56,642 bases of DNA. It comes from a virus (lineage: Duplodnaviria > Heunggongvirae > Uroviricota > Caudoviricetes). Below the pieces are notes generated by a model. That model was not told the origin of the DNA and ran no database searches. It saw only the letters and a program-made list of their open reading frames with translations. The stretch is from IMG/VR virus record IMGVR_UViG_2917461297_000001, positions 1-56,642 of that record. One strand, given 5' to 3'. Made by a program: the position numbers and the translations under genes. Positions 12,001 to 44,135 of the stretch are shown here, piece by piece. The number at the start of each line of letters is the position of its first letter. Position 1 is the stretch's first letter.

Positions 12001-15000
12001 TAGAAACAGCTTCTGATAACTGGTTTAAATTATCAGTTAATGTCTGTAATGAGTTCGTTACTCTATTTTTATACTCAAGAGGTAAGTTCTTAGAATTTTT
12101 AACTGTTTCGCCTTGTTTAGTAATTCGAGTTCTTTCTATTGGAATAATGCGCATTAAAGACTTTAGCGACGCTTTTTCTTCAGCTGAAATTATTTTATCT
12201 TCAAATGATGAAACAACTTCTCTTTGTAAACGCTCAGAGGAAGATTTTAAATCTCTTAAATCACCGTTTACTGATTCTTTGAAGCTATTTAATTCACTAA
12301 TAGCTCTATTTGCAGTTGTATCATCTGTATACTTAGACGCTTTCACCCAGTCGTTTGGGTTATAAAGTTGTCCTTGTAATTTTTTACCGATAGATACTAA
12401 AATATCTCCAGCTTGACCTTGAGTCCATAAGTCTCCAGAGTCATAAGGTGGGGTAGGTTCACTTATAAATACACGTCTTTTACCATCAGCAACATCTAAA
12501 GCGTTCTTTGAGTTGTTTAACGCTTCAGTAATAACTTGGTCTTCAATAGCTTTCCAAGAATAGTTACCGCCTTCTTTAACGAATCTGTATGCAACACCAG
12601 ACTTAGTATTTAAGAAGAAGTCTCCAACATGAGCTTCTTTTAATGTGTTTGTGTTCCAATCCTTTGCGGGTACGTTTGTTAGAGTAGGAGCATATGGGTA
12701 ATAGAACGTTTCTATCGCACCATCAACTTGTTTTTGTAAACTATCAATTTCTTCATTGACTTGTTGAACCACTGCATTAAATTTTTCTAACTGTGTAGCT
12801 GCTACGTCACTTGCAATATTAACTGACATCTTGTTTAATGCGTCTGTAATTGCTGCTGAGTATTCACTTAACTTAGTTGAATATGTTCTTAACAACTCAT
12901 CAACTTGATTTTTTTCTTCTTGTGTGACTTTGGAGTCCTCAATAACAGAAGTTAATAATCTACGTAAATTAGTATGGGTAGCAACATAAGGGGAGCGTTT
13001 AGCTGAAACTAAATCACGTATATTCTGATTGATATATTTGCTAGCTAACAATATTTTGTATTGCTCCTCAACATCAGTAAACTCTCTGTCTAACATGTCT
13101 AAATGTACTTGAATTCTAATTTTTTCTTGCGCAGTGATAATACCGTCTTTAAAGGAATCTCCTAACAACGATTCAAACTCTGTAATGTTTTGTTTTATAT
13201 CCCTCAGGTCATTATCAATCTCTTCTTTAAGACTATCAAATTTACCTTGTAGTCTACCTTCTGCATCTTTTGAATATTTATCTGAGATAGCTAAAATTGC
13301 TTTAGAATATTCATCTTCAAAAGTAGCGATAGAAGTTTTGTAGTTCTCATATTTTTCTTTATAATTCGATTTCTCTTGCTCATCTGAGCGACCATCTTCA
13401 ATCATTGACTGTACATAGTTTACAAACTCTTCATGATTCTGTTGTAAAGTCGAATAAGAAGCGTCTAAAGTCGATTTCAACTCAGTCGGTAATTTTTCAT
13501 TATTAGATACTGTATTGTGTCGATTTGTAATATCTTCGAGTTCACTAACAACAATTAATAACATCGTTTTGATATTTTCGATTTCAATACTATCAAAAAT
13601 ATTATCTGAGAAAGCACCCTTAATGTATTCGTCAGCATCATTGATTGACTTGCTTAAATCCTTTAGCTCATCTTTAATATCTAATGAAATCTTATCTGCA
13701 TAATCATGTGACTCATTAATTACTTGATTAAGTTGATTGTTCAGGTTACGTTCCATGATTTCTTGAAGAATAACAAGAATATCTTTTACTTCTTCACGAT
13801 ATTGAATTAATGAATCATTTACTGATTTTGATTCTTGGGGAGTAATCTTAGAGTCACTAATTGATTCATTAATGTTTGTCACTAAAGATTCATAAATACC
13901 GTTATATACCGCAATTGCTTCGTCTAATTTAATAATATCTTCACTTAGAATGTAAGGGTGATTATACGCTTGTTCAACTTGTTGCTTAAACTCACTGTTC
14001 TCTTTCTCAAGTGTTGTTAAAGTATCTTTAATTAAACGTTTTTCCACATCTGTAATAATACCGTCAGCAAAAGTTTCTTTAATAATATCGCTAGTTTCAT
14101 TGACAATACCTTCAACGTCAATAGCTTCACTAATAGCAACATTCAATTTTCTGTCGAACTCATCACGAATTAAATCATTTTTAACTTTACTTTCTTCAGC
14201 AATCTCTTTCTTGAGTTTATCGAAATAATCTTCACCTTCTGAAGATGTCAAATGGAATGATGATTTATCAATAGTTAATCCATCTTTATCGAATCTAAAG
14301 CTGCCAGACTCATTTTCCATTGTTAATGACTCCCCGACAATCATTTTACCAATGAGCATCTCTGCGTTTACGCCATCAGGTGTAATACCAGTTTTAAAAG
14401 TTTCACCGTTATCTTTAGTCATAGCGATTACGCCACCAACCATAATGACGAATTCACTAGGATTTTCGTTAGAAATAACTTTGACGCCGTGTGAACCAAT
14501 GTCAACTGTTTCGTTGCCCGCAAGTACACGTTTCTTATTAGCGTCCCACTCAGCTTCAATTAATTGAGACATTCTAGTTAATTTTCCTTTTTGTTCACGA
14601 ATTTGTTCTTTATGGAAATTAACTTGTGCCGCACTAGATGCTGTTGAAGCGATTAATTCTGATACAACTTCCGCACTATTTTTATAATCAATTACATCAC
14701 TTACAGTAAGAGTTACATTATTCTCATCAAAGTTGATTTGAATATCAGTGATATATGCCTTAAGTTTCTCGTCAAATGCTTTATTAGAGAAAGTGATAAT
14801 GTCACCAGCTACTAATTTATCCCAACTGTGTTTATCTTCTAAAGACTGAATAAAGTTTACAACACTAATGTTCAATGTTCTATTTAATATTTTTTGCTTC
14901 TTCATTTGTTTGATAGCGTCATCGTATAACTCTTTAGCTTCTGTATGATTTTCTTCTGTCCATATAGCGCCATACACAAATTGTTCTCGCTCTTTATACA

Positions 15001-38915: not shown

Positions 38916-40727
38916 CTATACTATTGCTTTTGGTTTCCTCATCGAACCAAAGTTTCTAAAGTTTGTTGTTTTTGCAGTACGTTGTAGTTCACGTTCTAGT
39001 ACGGTAGCAAATTGGTTCCCATAAGATACAGAAGAGTATCTATCCTTACGTGCCGTTCCGTATGTAACAAGTTTGAAGGCTCCACCTTCCATATTAACTT
39101 GTTCTAAATTCATAGCTTCATTAATGAACATTTCTGTTTGTCTAAATGGATATTTCAATAATGCTTGAATATTATTCTTTAAATGAGAGAATTTTATTTT
39201 ATTATTGTTTCTCATTAGCTCCTCTGCTAATTCTTCTCTTATTAATAGTCTAAACTTACCACGCATAAAGTTATCCGCTAATAAGTTCGCCATCTCCATG
39301 TTTTTCTCATTAGTGGCATTAATTGTGTAGATTACCCGTGGTGCTTCAGGAAACTTTGATGTTGCTGCCAATTTATCGTCGTTATAAACATTTAGCGGCT
39401 CATATTCAATACCACGTTCAGTGTCTAATAATGGCACTCTCAAATTATCTAAAATACCATAACCAACGTTTCTAGAGTCAAGCACAATGTAATCACAATC
39501 AAAATCATCATAAAGTTGCCTAATTCTTATTGCTTGAGTTAGGAAGTCTTCTCCTTCCATATCTTGCATATAGACCAGTTGCCGTTCGTATTGTTTATTC
39601 TTAGGTACCAGCCTGATTAAGCTAAATACAGAAGCGTCATTTGAATTACCACCCATACGAGCAACGTCGACAGATAGTATTCTTTTTTCTTTTGGTTCTT
39701 TTTTAGGGTTTACTATGTTTGTGTGCTCAGTAACCTCTCTTGGATAGAAAGCCTCAGTAATTTTTCTGTTAATATCAATCTTGTTAAAATTAAAGAAGGC
39801 TGATTCTGATTCTCCCCACCAACGAGCTTCCATCTCCATAGCAAATTTCATCTTGGTAAAACCATCTGCTTGTGCTTCTGCTTTCATACTTTCATGTGAA
39901 TATAATTTTTCTTGCACGCCTGTATAATAGGGGACATGACAAACAAATGACCTTAATGCATCTTCACTCTTTTTCTTTAGCATATGTTTTGTGTAATTAA
40001 GTGTTGTTGTGTAACCCCAATGAGATTTATACCATGCTGATGATAAGTACATCTGCATGTTTTCTTCTCGTTTATAGTCTTTGTACTCCGGCTTAGTTAA
40101 GAACAATGGTTCACGTTGAGACGTCAACATCTTCTTAAATACCGAGTTAATAATATCAGGGTCAACTTTTACAAACTCATCGACCAAAAGTAAATTAGCA
40201 CGATAGCCACGAGCATTGTCATTTGAAGCTGCAACTCTAATCCAACTACCATTTTGGAATACGATAATTGGCTTTTGGTTACCAGTCTTTAATTCAGCTA
40301 TTTCTCTTTGTAGTAGTGGAGCATTAGGTAAAATCTCATTCTCAATCTTCTCAAGAATCAAGATACCTTGTGACTTAGTAGGGGCTGTAACAACTATCTT
40401 TGTACCCGGAAAAAGTACACATCTAGTTACGCAATACACCGCAGATAAAAAGGACTTCCCGATGCCCCTCGAGGCAATAAATACAAAGTAATGATGTTGT
40501 ATCATCGCCCACAAAAGTACGCATTGAAACGGTTTCAGATTAATGTTCAAAAATTCCAACACAAATCTATGCGGGTTCTCTCTGTAATAAGCTATCCATA
40601 TCGCTATATTCTTCATAGCTGATACAGACTTAGATTCTGTTTTTCTATGATTACGTCTTAACTTGAATAAATTTACTTTAGAGTGATATTGACTTCTATG
40701 AGTACCATTACTTACACTAAAACCCAT
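38916..40727 (-). CDS. terL: Terminase large subunit
   Basis: Walker A ASRGIGKS, Walker B LLLVDEF, RNase H-like nuclease SVDVARMG...ND and KDRYS. Confidence 0.93.
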   Translation of the reverse strand: MGFSVSNGTHRSQYHSKVNLFKLRRNHRKTESKSVSAMKNIAIWIAYYRENPHRFVLEFLNINLKPFQCVLLWAMIQHHYFVFIASRGIGKSFLSAVYCVTRCVLFPGTKIVVTAPTKSQGILILEKIENEILPNAPLLQREIAELKTGNQKPIIVFQNGSWIRVAASNDNARGYRANLLLVDEFVKVDPDIINSVFKKMLTSQREPLFLTKPEYKDYKREENMQMYLSSAWYKSHWGYTTTLNYTKHMLKKKSEDALRSFVCHVPYYTGVQEKLYSHESMKAEAQADGFTKMKFAMEMEARWWGESESAFFNFNKIDINRKITEAFYPREVTEHTNIVNPKKEPKEKRILSVDVARMGGNSNDASVFSLIRLVPKNKQYERQLVYMQDMEGEDFLTQAIRIRQLYDDFDCDYIVLDSRNVGYGILDNLRVPLLDTERGIEYEPLNVYNDDKLAATSKFPEAPRVIYTINATNEKNMEMANLLADNFMRGKFRLLIREELAEELMRNNNKIKFSHLKNNIQALLKYPFRQTEMFINEAMNLEQVNMEGGAFKLVTYGTARKDRYSSVSYGNQFATVLERELQRTAKTTNFRNFGSMRKPKAIV

Positions 40728-41611
40728 TATTTTTTATTACTCCCTAATAACTCGTCCTCAGAGATACCGTATTTCTCCACATGTTCTTGGTATTCTTCTT
40801 CATAAGGGTTTTCAGCTTCTAGTGAAGTCAACATAGGAGATAAGAAATTATTTCTCATATATTTTTCAATATTATCAATATCCTTAAACTCTGGTAGTAC
40901 TTCTGGTACTGGCTTCTCGTTCTCCCAACGTTTTACCATGACCCCAAATGTTTCATTCTCATTGGTTTTGCTCGCTTTTTCTTGAGAAGGAGCGATACCA
41001 GCAGTCCTCATTAAGTCCATAATCATTTTAGTTTCATCTTTTGTGCTAACTGACTTTATACGTTTCTTCCTAATATCGAGTTCTAATTGACAAATCTGAG
41101 TGATAATATTTTGGAATGTTGGCGTATCGACATCGTAAGCGTTACAGTAGTCTTCATATCTGCTTATTAAAAACAAATATTCATCTTCGACATATTCTTC
41201 TCCCCAATACAATTGACAATCTCTTAACTCTTCGGGGGTTAGTTTTTCAATCGTATCCTCTGTAAGTTTTGCTTCATATGCGTTAAAGAATCTATCTGAT
41301 TCAATAAACAACTCCTTATTTCGTGTAGGATTTTTTCTTACTAAGTATTTGTATCTTTGTCGTCCTACTTTATTAAATTCTTCTTCTTTGTACGGTCGAT
41401 TAACACCCATAAGTACGTTTATAAAGTTTTTATATCCCTCAACAGGCTCATTTACTAGCTCTTCTATACAACGCTTACACACTGGATAATATCCATCTGG
41501 GAAAGCGGCGTTTTTACCATTTATTGATATAAAATTAGTATCTCTAACTAGGTTTCTGTTGCAGTGAACACATGTTTTAATCTTTTCAACTTTGGCATCT
41601 CTTATTGCCAC
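40727..41611 (-). CDS. Putative terminase small subunit with N-terminal C4 zinc finger
   Basis: CVHC...CKRC; WGE.Y...EY.FL..RY; overlaps the TerL start. Confidence 0.65.
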   Translation of the reverse strand: MAIRDAKVEKIKTCVHCNRNLVRDTNFISINGKNAAFPDGYYPVCKRCIEELVNEPVEGYKNFINVLMGVNRPYKEEEFNKVGRQRYKYLVRKNPTRNKELFIESDRFFNAYEAKLTEDTIEKLTPEELRDCQLYWGEEYVEDEYLFLISRYEDYCNAYDVDTPTFQNIITQICQLELDIRKKRIKSVSTKDETKMIMDLMRTAGIAPSQEKASKTNENETFGVMVKRWENEKPVPEVLPEFKDIDNIEKYMRNNFLSPMLTSLEAENPYEEEYQEHVEKYGISEDELLGSNKK

Positions 41612-41629
41612 ATAAACACCACCTAATTA

Positions 41630-41714
41630 TTTTTTGTTCGGTGGGCGATGGTAGGAGAGAGGTAAGGGGAGACCATCGTCCAACCAACAAAAAACCGACC
41701 TTGTATAAGTCGGT
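41630..41714 (-). promoter_or_regulatory. Terminator plus long hairpin with C/U-rich loop in the leader of TerS
   Basis: Minus strand ACCGAC-TTATACAAG-GTCGGT-TTTTTG, then TTTTTTGTT..GGACGATGGT-[CTCCCCTTACCTCTCTCCT]-ACCATCGCCC..AACAAAAAA. Confidence 0.65.
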
Positions 41715-41744
41715 AAAATGAAAGGGGAATTATCATGGAAAGAA

Positions 41745-42900
41745 AAAGAAACGAGAGCGTTTTTAAACACTCAAAACTGTACCTAAAGAATTAAAATCCC
41801 CTAGACACAGTTTTCAATATTTAAAGATGATACTATGAAACCAGTAACTTCAAGTATCATAATGAATGTAAGTTTTTAAACAACTGGAGAGTTCGCTAAA
41901 TGCGTCCATTAGCAAACTAAGCTATCTCGATACGTCTACCTTAATAGCCAAACGAATTAACTCAGCTCTATAATTCTCATCACAGAACCTACAAACATAT
42001 AGTTTATTTCCTTGTGTTATCCATTGTTTTGTATTTAGAACGATTATAAGGAAGTGACTATTTTCACAAGTCAAAACTCTTTACAATCGACATAGACAGC
42101 TAGTCTTGCTGTGTCTTGACTAAGTGTACTAAACATAAAATTTTATGGATATGTGCCATGATAACCTCGCCATTTAATATTCAGACGAGATGAGCATTAG
42201 CTAGATGACTTATCACAACCCTTTGTTCTAGCACTGATTATCGGTTCAACGCTTAAAACCTTTGCGAACCCTAAACCATAAGTAAAGGATAATCAGGTGT
42301 TTAGTTGAATTATGGGAACACACCAAGTTATACGGTAAGCATCAACTCCCTGTATGTTATAACTCAGACAACACCTAAACTTGAGTTATACACCAAGCGT
42401 CCGATAGAATTTTTCCTCCATACTATCCTTAGGAATCACTTTTTACTCTCTGATGCTTCTTCTGAGTAAAAGCTGACCAACTTATTTTCGCTCTCAAGGA
42501 ACTACCTAATTTTGAGCTATCCCTGTTTGGAAAAAGTAGGCATGGTTCTCCTATTTTTATTTATAAATGATTTTAGACACAGATGTAAAAGGGTATTTTT
42601 ACACGGAATTAGTGACAGATTTTAAATCAGATGAGTAAGCAAAACCCTGCACGATTTCTCCTAAAATTAGACACTAACTGGAAGATGTCTCCAGTGAGAC
42701 CAACAGTCAGATATATAGCTTCTGCCGAGCAACATGTGGTGTCTCTCACATGTCCAACCTAATGTTAAATTACTATCTCAAGCCTGTAACCAGACAGCAC
42801 TCCCATAGGTATTAATGTTCGATTGAACGGGAGGGTTTTTCGTACGTCAGGCGTTATGTAATACCCCCACATCAGAGCGTATCTGCCTAAAAAGGAGTGG
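41745..42900 (-). ncRNA. Candidate large structured ncRNA (GOLLD/ROOL-like or new class); ends approximate
   Basis: No ORF of 60 aa or more between 41612 and 42926; more than 12 stem-loops including nested ones; ends at a hairpin plus pyrimidine run (41772-41738); strand inferred from flanking operon and terminator polarity. Confidence 0.7.
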
Positions 42901-42926
42901 AGGCGTTGTCGTTAATTATGTATAAG

Positions 42927-44135
42927 TTAGTTAAAGTTAATTAGCTTAACCGAATGATTAATACCACCAAGTTTCGATTTCTCAAATGTAACCATCTTTT
43001 GCCCAGCACGACCACCAAATCGTCCTGAGGCACTGTAAGAGTCATGCCCAATTCCGCTTGGATTAACAATAACAGTCGTGATACCAAAATTTTTCTCAAA
43101 AGAATGGTGTACATGACCGATAAAAATCCATTGAGGAACATATGATAACATTTGTGCTAATTTATCTGAGCCATTAGCAATCTTGTCTAAATCACCATGT
43201 GCAAACACTACACTCTCTCCTAGAACATTAGCTTCCACTAATCCGTCTCTGTCCTCATGAAATGTGATATTCTTATAGTTTGCTAATCTAGCTTGAAGGT
43301 GCCAAATTATTAACTTTTCAAAGTTCTCTTCATGACTTCTAACTGCGTCTTTCTGTGGGATTAACCTTCCGTGATTCCCAACAACTGAATAAACTGAAAC
43401 ATCTGTTACAACTTTAGCAACCTCAGATACAAACTCAGTAAGTAACTCACATAAAATCATTAATTGTTGTACAGCATCTTCTGAAGCGGCTACACGGCTT
43501 GATATGTGAATATTTCCACCGATACCGTCTCCTAAATGCGCTAAATGTACTTTGTTATGTCCATGTGTCTTAATCTCATTCAGCACTTCTGAAAGATAGT
43601 AACGGACTCGCTCTTTCGCAATTTTAACGTTATATTTACCAAAACGACCGTCATACTCTGCGCCAATATGCCAATCTGACATGAGAACAATTAGCTCTTT
43701 CTCTTGTCTCTCAGCGGTCGGAAAAGTAGGGGGTGTTGGTATTGCTGGTAAAGCTGAAATATTGCTAAAAATCTCGTCCTTAATGTGTTCAAACCTTCCT
43801 GAGAAATCTAATAACTTTCTATATTCTCGTCGTTGGTCTTGCAACATTTTTGTGATAGCACGATTCTTTTCATTCATCTTGAGTTGTTCTTTAGTTAATT
43901 CCTCAAGAAATTCATCAGGTAGGGAAGCTGTGTGTTGTTTCTTGAACATTGATTCCCAAACATTCTTGAAGATTTGATATTCTTTTCTGTACTTTGATTC
44001 GTCATAATCAGTACCATTTTCGTGGTTCAGGAAATCAGCAATCTGTTGATTACTGAGCCCCAAACTCTCTTTATTTTCGTACAAACGGTACTGATATTCG
44101 GCAAATGATTCTCCGTCCTTACGAAACATGTTCAT
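42927..44135 (-). CDS. Calcineurin-like metallophosphoesterase with N-terminal HTH/coiled coil (YonJ-like)
   Basis: SDWHIG, HLGDGI, VGNHGR, FAHGD, IGHVHH metal-binding motifs. Confidence 0.88.
   Translation of the reverse strand: MNMFRKDGESFAEYQYRLYENKESLGLSNQQIADFLNHENGTDYDESKYRKEYQIFKNVWESMFKKQHTASLPDEFLEELTKEQLKMNEKNRAITKMLQDQRREYRKLLDFSGRFEHIKDEIFSNISALPAIPTPPTFPTAERQEKELIVLMSDWHIGAEYDGRFGKYNVKIAKERVRYYLSEVLNEIKTHGHNKVHLAHLGDGIGGNIHISSRVAASEDAVQQLMILCELLTEFVSEVAKVVTDVSVYSVVGNHGRLIPQKDAVRSHEENFEKLIIWHLQARLANYKNITFHEDRDGLVEANVLGESVVFAHGDLDKIANGSDKLAQMLSYVPQWIFIGHVHHSFEKNFGITTVIVNPSGIGHDSYSASGRFGGRAGQKMVTFEKSKLGGINHSVKLINFN

Follow-up and report, generated by a model that had tools for sequence, protein, structure and literature searches.

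A 1315-nt tract of a Staphylococcus prophage that lacks long open reading frames (ORFs) is a patchwork of separately folding, exchangeable RNA modules, all of them encoded on the operon (minus) strand, and not one RNA. The tract (41612-42926) separates a metallophosphoesterase gene from the packaging genes in a 56,642-nt stretch of Caudoviricetes DNA (IMG/VR record IMGVR_UViG_2917461297_000001), called the window from here on, which is part of a 2.8-Mb single-contig Staphylococcus genome carrying a large SPbeta-like prophage. The favoured explanation, held with a probability of about 60% and built on comparison of sequences, is that the tract is a read-through array of non-coding RNAs resembling lncRNA1 of the Kayvirus phages, whose modules would perhaps serve as decoys for host toxins. 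Its largest coherent RNA is K2, of about 275 nt, with nine helices and two pseudoknots; the other modules discussed are K1, a smaller pseudoknotted motif, and the hairpin elements named a and c. Positions given as q are counted along the minus strand, q being 42927 minus the window coordinate.

K2, a doubly pseudoknotted RNA

The first alignment of K2 comprised 11 copies with sharp edges and visible compensatory changes, for which RNAalifold returned a multi-helix fold. Covariance model R1 was built from this alignment and fold and, together with pattern scans, added three members (L046, L049 and L045). In the later alignment A3, which holds 14 copies, 97.2% of the cells belonging to K2 pairs are paired, and 28 of the 74 pairs have changed on both sides, compared with 6.4±2.0 in shuffled alignments and 2-8 in slid controls. 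The same helices were recovered de novo with MAFFT and RNAalifold from nine non-redundant copies, 23 of 68 pairs being compensatory. Two pseudoknots covary as well. One joins the invariant loop of a long hairpin to the linker that follows it (columns 101-107/161-167), while the other is of the H type, with columns 125-129/139-143 interleaved with 132-137/154-159. Neither pseudoknot was part of the model that made the alignment, so their covariation is not explicable by model fitting. Two elements of the RNAalifold fold were dropped because competing pseudoknots covary, namely helix 8 (columns 165-168/208-212) and an outer stem (columns 74-80/124-130) that is, moreover, broken in two divergent copies. 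The copies are 72-78% identical, their loops are invariant, and the many G-U pairs identify the operon strand as the RNA strand.

K2 is found in 15 Twortvirinae records, upstream of a NinI-like phosphatase. Compared with phage K, SAP23 has it as a precise insertion of ~263 nt within lnc001, with K1 and the motif DUF3800-I as its neighbours. In a metagenome phage contig (L046) it is flanked by a phrog_284 exonuclease gene on one side and TerL on the other; a divergent copy of 74 bits separates two tRNAs within an array of six in a contig of a Clostridia metagenome-assembled genome (L045); and the related prophage L049/L050 has K2 in the same slot as here. It is co-oriented with its neighbours in every context. 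None was found in the 112 other Staphylococcaceae genomes or in plasmids, which yielded the K1 core only; pattern scans of IMG/VR, of one genome per species and of metagenomes returned L045, L046 and L049 plus two chance hits only, and a BLAST search with the L045 copy found no member in a non-staphylococcal phage. K2 thus presents itself as a predicted RNA, undescribed before, with discrete boundaries and at least five genomic contexts. Because these contexts are so varied, it may be read as a self-contained, trans-acting RNA, either a component of a ribonucleoprotein (RNP) or an RNA whose activity depends on tertiary structure, rather than as a regulator of a neighbouring gene.

Scanned against Rfam by gathering score and by E-value, the window and 20 related loci showed no family corresponding to K2. 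A protein-coding nature was rejected, as the antisense open frames differ in frame among the copies, are shifted by indels and include no conserved one. Group I introns are recognized by a P3-P8/P7 pseudoknot layout, a 5′ exon ending in U and an intron ending in G. A group I or II intron was likewise discarded for K2, which has no Rfam match (Intron_gpI) and no P4-P6 or P8 between its pseudoknot strands; the insertion in SAP23 ends in ...AUAC(U) and, allowing for the 2-nt ambiguity of the junction, has no terminal G. As a separate observation, the TerL of contig L046 (MAVE01000011.1, 1891-3966) comes as two ORFs, N-terminal (156 aa) and C-terminal (452 aa), ~246 nt apart, which may indicate an intron or other intervening sequence, and the same contig has an HNH endonuclease gene between TerS and the exonuclease gene.

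K1, module a and module c

K1, of ~95 nt, combines a 5′ hairpin and two inner hairpins with a pseudoknot in which the first loop pairs with the 3′ tail. According to RNAalifold on 14 copies, 8 of its 17 pairs have changed on both sides, and the loop/tail pairing covaries, with at least three variants that include AGACAC/GUGUCU, AGAUAC/GUAUCU and GAGUGA(N)/(N)UCACUC. The motif recurs in phage K lnc001, other Twortvirinae, phi80-type phages and staphylococcal genomes; positions 42703-42747 align with phage K 14006-14050 at 82% identity over 45 nt, with the same pseudoknot. The Rfam family rli62 (RF01486) gives 16.2 bits on the K1 region (42683-42781) and 31-35 bits on K1 copies elsewhere. With 16 bits here, far below the gathering score of 83, an identification of K1 as rli62 was rejected.

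Another locus on the minus strand of the same genome (L005, G000:C1:1704862-1707912) contains module a (1501-1551), 100% identical to the window copy over 51 nt, followed by K1 (1195-1299) and, 45 nt downstream of K1, by an ORF (584-1150) encoding a 188-aa nuclease-like protein of the PBECR4 family (PF18813, E=1e-13). In its arrangement the locus looks like a cassette of an RNA leader and a toxin-type gene.

Eleven loci in staphylococcal genomes and phi80-type phages have copies of module a, which are 80-100% identical and show compensatory changes in the stem. Outside the window the module is preceded by a promoter-like sequence (judged by eye), is followed by a U-run, and stands just upstream of Abi_2 genes, a position in which it is a candidate attenuator or regulatory leader. 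In several staphylococcal species (L010, L008, L011 and L012) the distance to the Abi_2 (AbiD/F-like) gene is ~60 nt, and the element is not in Rfam. Module c has copies of 80-84% identity in at least 12 staphylococcal loci, some of them at contig ends, and one locus (L030) has it immediately 3′ to an Abi_2 gene. In the window, modules a and c are without the clean U-runs present elsewhere, which fits read-through in a longer transcript. The idea that a and c once bracketed a single Abi_2 cassette whose gene was replaced was abandoned, since no locus has both around one Abi_2 gene. Another Staphylococcus genome (L014, G099:C14, ~1374-2461) has ~1.1 kb with no ORF of 60 amino acids (aa) or more upstream of its module c copy, perhaps a decayed gene or a further non-coding array.

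Exchange of parts among relatives

No homologue of the whole tract was found by BLAST in 50,697 phage records or 113 Staphylococcaceae genomes. The matches come in pieces, each with its own partners: q11-67 (module a) and q197-247 (K1 core) match many staphylococcal genomes and phi80-type siphoviruses, q173-262 (K1) and q373-645 (K2) match Twort-like myoviruses, q914-968 (module c) matches many staphylococcal genomes, and q975-1300 matches SPbeta-like staphylococcal and mammaliicoccal phages. Smaller islands (q76-101 and q129-174) are common to the tract and the Mammaliicoccus phage phi6255, and the region 41788-41951 is 72% identical in the SPbeta-like prophage of another genome (G064). Other SPbeta-like phages have a large ORF-free spacer in the same slot with different contents, measuring 1.7 kb in NC_029119 and PhiSepi-HH3 and 2.6 kb in phi6255. 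The slot of phi6255 (L054, 2867-3456) contains two tRNAs, and its opposite strand matches the Listeria small RNA rli28 with 75 bits against a gathering score of 45.

Among the relatives the closest is an IMG/VR prophage, L049/L050, whose flanking genes are 93-95% identical, while the interior of the spacer is 42-83% identical, with segments replaced (Table 1) and a gap of 51 alignment columns in the K1-K2 linker. Within the exchangeable segment downstream of K2, identity to L049 drops from 66% to 42%, and both phi6255 and genome G061 have q638-696 as well. X2 and X3, two related DNA assemblies, carry 88-89 other bases in place of exactly 42011-42276; K1 and K2 are kept, and the joints fall at the last base of K2 and at the start of module c. 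This replacement and the module-by-module divergence from L049/L050 mark the slot as a recombination hotspot with swapping of modules. At the level of sequence, then, horizontal exchange of the modules among staphylococcal phages is established.

The conserved 3′ leader

The last part of the tract behaves differently and is kept in all five SPbeta-like staphylococcal and mammaliicoccal phages compared. Its hairpin of ~21 bp, in which five pairs have changed on both sides among five sequences, uses the U-tract of the preceding terminator as its 5′ arm and has a pyrimidine-rich loop, rich in CCUCUCUCCU, a sequence that resembles an anti-Shine-Dalgarno. This hairpin could be an RNase III site or could occlude the ribosome-binding site before the first packaging gene. 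The last 175 nt are read here as a cis-acting boundary and 5′ untranslated region (UTR), or leader, for the packaging operon and are set apart from the cargo-like modules.

Resemblance to known RNAs

The lncRNA1 (lnc001) of Kayvirus phages was defined by RNA sequencing (RNA-seq) at 13595-14229 in phage K and 13,730-14,300 in vB_SauM-515A1 (PMC7698491, PMC9241854). It is abundant in 515A1, with 2.2% of all counts (PMC7698491), and the transcript is reported for phage K too (PMC9241854). Like the present tract, it is a non-coding, co-oriented, terminator-ended locus of small structured modules, and the two share the K1 core with its conserved pseudoknotted structure. In 15 other Twortvirinae genomes, the locus that matches lncRNA1 has K2 downstream of K1, in the same order and orientation as here, and the K2-bearing Twort-like phages show the order K1, K2, DUF3800-I motif, terminator. 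The loci differ in that Kayvirus lncRNA1 belongs to a virulent myovirus, whereas the tract belongs to a temperate, SPbeta-like siphovirus prophage known from sequence. The Kayvirus layout, with tRNA-Met upstream and DUF3800-I at the 3′ end, is not found in the tract, which has a terminator of other sequence and the extra modules a and c. DUF3800-I (RF02969) follows K2 or K1 in the Twort-like loci, whereas a scan of 41400-43200 at E<=10 did not find it here. The 3′ end of phage K lnc001 (L042, 13632-13768) scores 43.4 bits with DUF3800-I, just below the gathering score of 44.2, and upstream of tRNA-Met there are TEG147-like matches of 41-44 bits (gathering score 56; loci considered L042, L039 and L001).

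GOLLD (RF01998) and ROOL (RF03087) are comparable to K2 in being phage-borne RNAs with complex, pseudoknotted folds and invariant loops, often located by tRNAs, as are the K2 copies of L045 and SAP23. GOLLD has a conserved, pseudoknotted 3′ domain, and ROOL is multi-stemmed with pseudoknots. They differ from K2 in sequence and structure, with no match in either, and in size, since K2 has ~275 nt compared with ~580 nt for ROOL and ~800 nt for GOLLD. Model R1 found no match in the lncRNA2 region of phage K.

Precedent for an orphan RNA acting as a mimic comes from pseudo-ToxI of phage phiTE, which is reportedly a phage-borne RNA antitoxin mimic, an orphan copy of an RNA found with a toxin gene in the host. 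ToxI is a tandem array of 36-nt repeats, and in type III systems such direct repeats adjoin a gene for an endoribonuclease toxin. In contrast, 41400-43100 is free of tandem or iterated repeats save for a chance match of 20 nt at the end of a gene, and there is no adjacent toxin gene, so a ToxI-like RNA of a type III toxin-antitoxin system was rejected for the tract.

What the present locus adds is the SPbeta-like prophage context, the divergent K2 copies that provide the case for covariation, the two K2 pseudoknots, and the ties that module a and K1 have with cassettes of Abi_2 and PBECR4, the latter in the same genome.

Genomic setting and structure of the tract

On the minus strand the genes follow one another as sigma-factor-like gene, HU-like gene, small gene, metallophosphoesterase gene, tract, phrog_3314 gene, TerL, portal and structural genes (Table 1). 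The protein encoded immediately upstream of the tract is 36% identical to the product of the gene that precedes K2 in contig L046. The family match of the sigma-factor-like gene is consistent with the suggestion of the initial annotation that it replaces the YonO polymerase of SPbeta. No tRNA or tmRNA was found in the window, and a literature search on SPbeta-like staphylococcal phages, rli62 and PBECR4 returned nothing on this locus.

Table 1. Features of the tract and its neighbouring genes in window coordinates, with identity to the closest relative (L049/L050)
Feature	Position	Strand	Description	Identity
Sigma-factor-like gene, 492 aa	44900-46378	minus	Head of transcription unit; phrog_5767 phage sigma-factor family, E=6e-74	
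Metallophosphoesterase gene, 402 aa	42927-44135	minus	Upstream gene, YonJ position; 'exonuclease' family phrog_284, E=1e-67; weak Pfam Metallophos match	
Module a, 57-nt hairpin	42860-42916	minus	Outer stem CCUCCAC/GUGGGGG, inner CAGA...UCUG	81%
Conserved short stretch	42763-42859	minus	Two small hairpins (incl. 42800-04/42829-33), stems verified	83%
K1 (module b)	~42659-42759	minus	Pseudoknotted motif	75%
Variable K1-K2 linker	42558-42664	minus	Small hairpin 42584-90/42597-603	45%
K2	42278-42557	minus	Covariance model R1, 233.7 bits, model positions 1-278	78%
Exchangeable segment	42011-42277	minus	GGTTC/GAACC hairpin, 42234-42/42288-96 stem	
Module c	41952-42013	minus	25-nt box and terminator-type hairpin; U-run interrupted in this window	
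Two stable hairpins	41788-41951	minus	41892-41916 and 41827-34/41853-60, stems verified; folding z -2.6 to -6.0	
Segment q785-1139		minus		~42%
Conserved 3′ leader	41612-41787	minus	Hairpin 41773-80/41807-14, terminator-like hairpin, pyrimidine tract, terminator, ~21-bp hairpin, ribosome-binding site	93%
Terminator-like hairpin	41772-41755	minus	Precedes intrinsic terminator	
Intrinsic terminator	41714-41694	minus	Computational prediction	
Conserved hairpin, ~21 bp	41631-41694	minus	See text	
Downstream gene, 294 aa	40727-41611	minus	TerS position; phrog_3314 (function unknown), E=8e-60; overlaps TerL start	
TerL gene	38916-40727	minus	Pfam TerL matches	

The description of the tract in the initial annotation proved largely accurate. 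The spacer of 1.3 kb has no ORF of 60 aa or more, the longest on either strand being 54 aa, and its GC content (0.32-0.41) is that of coding DNA and higher than that of the spacers at ~44700 and ~46400 (0.24-0.29). Nearly all of the stems said to tile it exist: nine of the 11 arm pairs are perfectly complementary, two are imperfect helices, and the three single hairpins fold too. The hairpin and pyrimidine run noted at its minus-strand end correspond to the predicted intrinsic terminator, which is preceded by the terminator-like hairpin. The placement inside the late operon needs correcting: the tract closes the HU-YonK-exonuclease unit before the terminator and is thus at the boundary of the packaging/structural operon, not within it.

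Folding energies (z in 150-nt windows of the minus strand) are conspicuous, at -2.6 to -6.0, over 41600-41975 and ~-1 or weaker elsewhere, with a mean of -1.30 for the spacer compared with -0.31 for the flanks. As the energy is unusual in the 3′ third only, the case for structure rests on comparison. Among the stems originally listed, compensatory changes support 42358-66/42382-90, 42439-48/42464-72 and 42532-40/42550-57 in K2, and 42732-38/42747-53 and 42678-94 in K1.

Interpretation

In a read-through array, the HU-YonK-exonuclease unit upstream would probably supply the promoter. The RNA would continue through modules a, K1 and K2, the exchangeable segment, module c and the two stable hairpins, and would end at the two terminators, just beyond which the packaging and structural genes start. 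No sigma-70-like promoter was found on the minus strand of the tract, and this, together with the terminators at its end, counts for such an array. Because a and K1 elsewhere are the 5′ leaders of Abi_2 and PBECR4 genes, their orphan copies may act as decoys or antidote mimics during lytic growth.

Several observations weigh against this explanation. The phages for which lncRNA1 was defined by RNA-seq, phage K and 515A1, are without K2. K1 and K2 are both missing from the other SPbeta-like staphylococcal phages and are therefore dispensable for this type of phage. No RNA runs containing the DNA of this prophage are listed; for a relative, RNA-library contigs of two studies extend over K1 and some of K2, skipping 42615-42669, but they do so at depths like those of the neighbouring genes, reveal no discrete or abundant RNA and could be DNA carry-over. 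Thermodynamically, the K1/K2 region is unexceptional, with a folding z of ~-1. The diversity of K2 is thin, amounting to four or five sequence types, the most divergent of which (L045) aligns confidently in its 5′ half only. In the contexts found, K2 never stands beside a candidate protein partner, so the decoy idea draws on module a and K1 only.

A more ambitious proposal is that K2 represents a new class of complex-folded phage RNA, a discrete cassette mobile between temperate and virulent staphylococcal phages and into phage tRNA arrays, with a function in trans such as that of a ribozyme, of the RNA in an RNP or of a decoy against defence, and that the tract is an 'RNA anti-defence island' of orphan toxin-gene leaders. 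This is put forward tentatively and is considerably less probable than the read-through array. Less probable again is that the tract consists of remnants of cargo ('moron') cassettes, with leaders (a and K1) and a terminator (c) of lost defence genes stranded at a recombination hotspot and now functionless. Such decay would agree with the leader positions of a and K1 at Abi_2 and PBECR4 genes elsewhere, with the trailing position of c at an Abi_2 gene, with the degenerate U-runs of a and c, with the weaker stem of module a in L049 and with the high variability of the slot among relatives. Neutral debris would not be expected, however, to show the covariation found here or to be retained so widely: K2 keeps 97% of its pairs through compensatory changes at 72-78% identity, with invariant loops, the K1 pseudoknot is maintained by covariation, and in virulent Twort-like phages these orphan modules persist at a locus with high expression (PMC7698491, PMC9241854). 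It is similarly improbable that the whole tract is a cis-acting leader of the packaging/structural operon, working by attenuation, processive antitermination or RNase III processing. The two terminators just upstream of the first packaging gene, the conserved 21-bp hairpin in the 5′ UTR with its anti-Shine-Dalgarno-like loop, and the retention of the last 175 nt in all SPbeta-like staphylococcal phages compared would suit this role, but they suit it for 41612-41787 only. K1 and K2 are missing from relatives with the same downstream genes, precede unrelated genes elsewhere and sit in a tRNA array, which would be unexpected of a cis-regulator of terS.

The initial annotation had proposed one giant, ornate RNA of ~1.1 kb, either a member of GOLLD or ROOL or a new, larger class. 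What the comparison supports is that the operon strand encodes structured RNA of a non-coding kind, akin to transcripts abundant in Kayvirus infection, and the tract is indeed long, ORF-free, co-oriented, of coding-like GC content, rich in stems, terminator-ended and probably one primary transcript; as a single functional RNA, however, it has very little to recommend it. No Rfam model reaches its gathering score in the window, and GOLLD, ROOL, OLE, the introns and raiA are without a match in 41400-43200 even at E<=10. The tract is not conserved as a unit, as homologous spacers differ or miss parts, a test of its own that the single-RNA view fails, and each module has a distribution of its own. 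Long-range pairs between modules are not conserved, the 42234-42/42288-96 stem, for instance, being missing in L049. This closest relative is unrelated over ~350 nt, besides the gap in its linker, and X2/X3 swap 266 nt for 88. A DNA-level element, such as a pac site, an origin or a protein-binding array beside the terminase genes, is equally hard to sustain. It would account for the position immediately upstream of terminase genes in two phage lineages, but the G-U pairs that the covariation preserves fit just one strand, a sign of RNA; K2 is, moreover, far from the packaging genes in Twortvirinae and in the tRNA array, and no tandem or iterated repeats accompany it.

GOLLD, ROOL, and lncRNA1 and lncRNA2 of Kayvirus are abundant, conserved structured phage RNAs whose function is unexplained. 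To these K2 adds a well-defined building block with a double pseudoknot and covariation support, ready for an Rfam-type family. The presence of the same modules in virulent myoviruses and in a temperate SPbeta-like prophage offers an inducible lysogen, which is genetically more tractable than a lytic phage, and the role of a and K1 elsewhere as leaders of Abi_2 and PBECR4 genes leads to a concrete and testable idea, namely that these phages may use RNA to mimic the leaders of defence genes.

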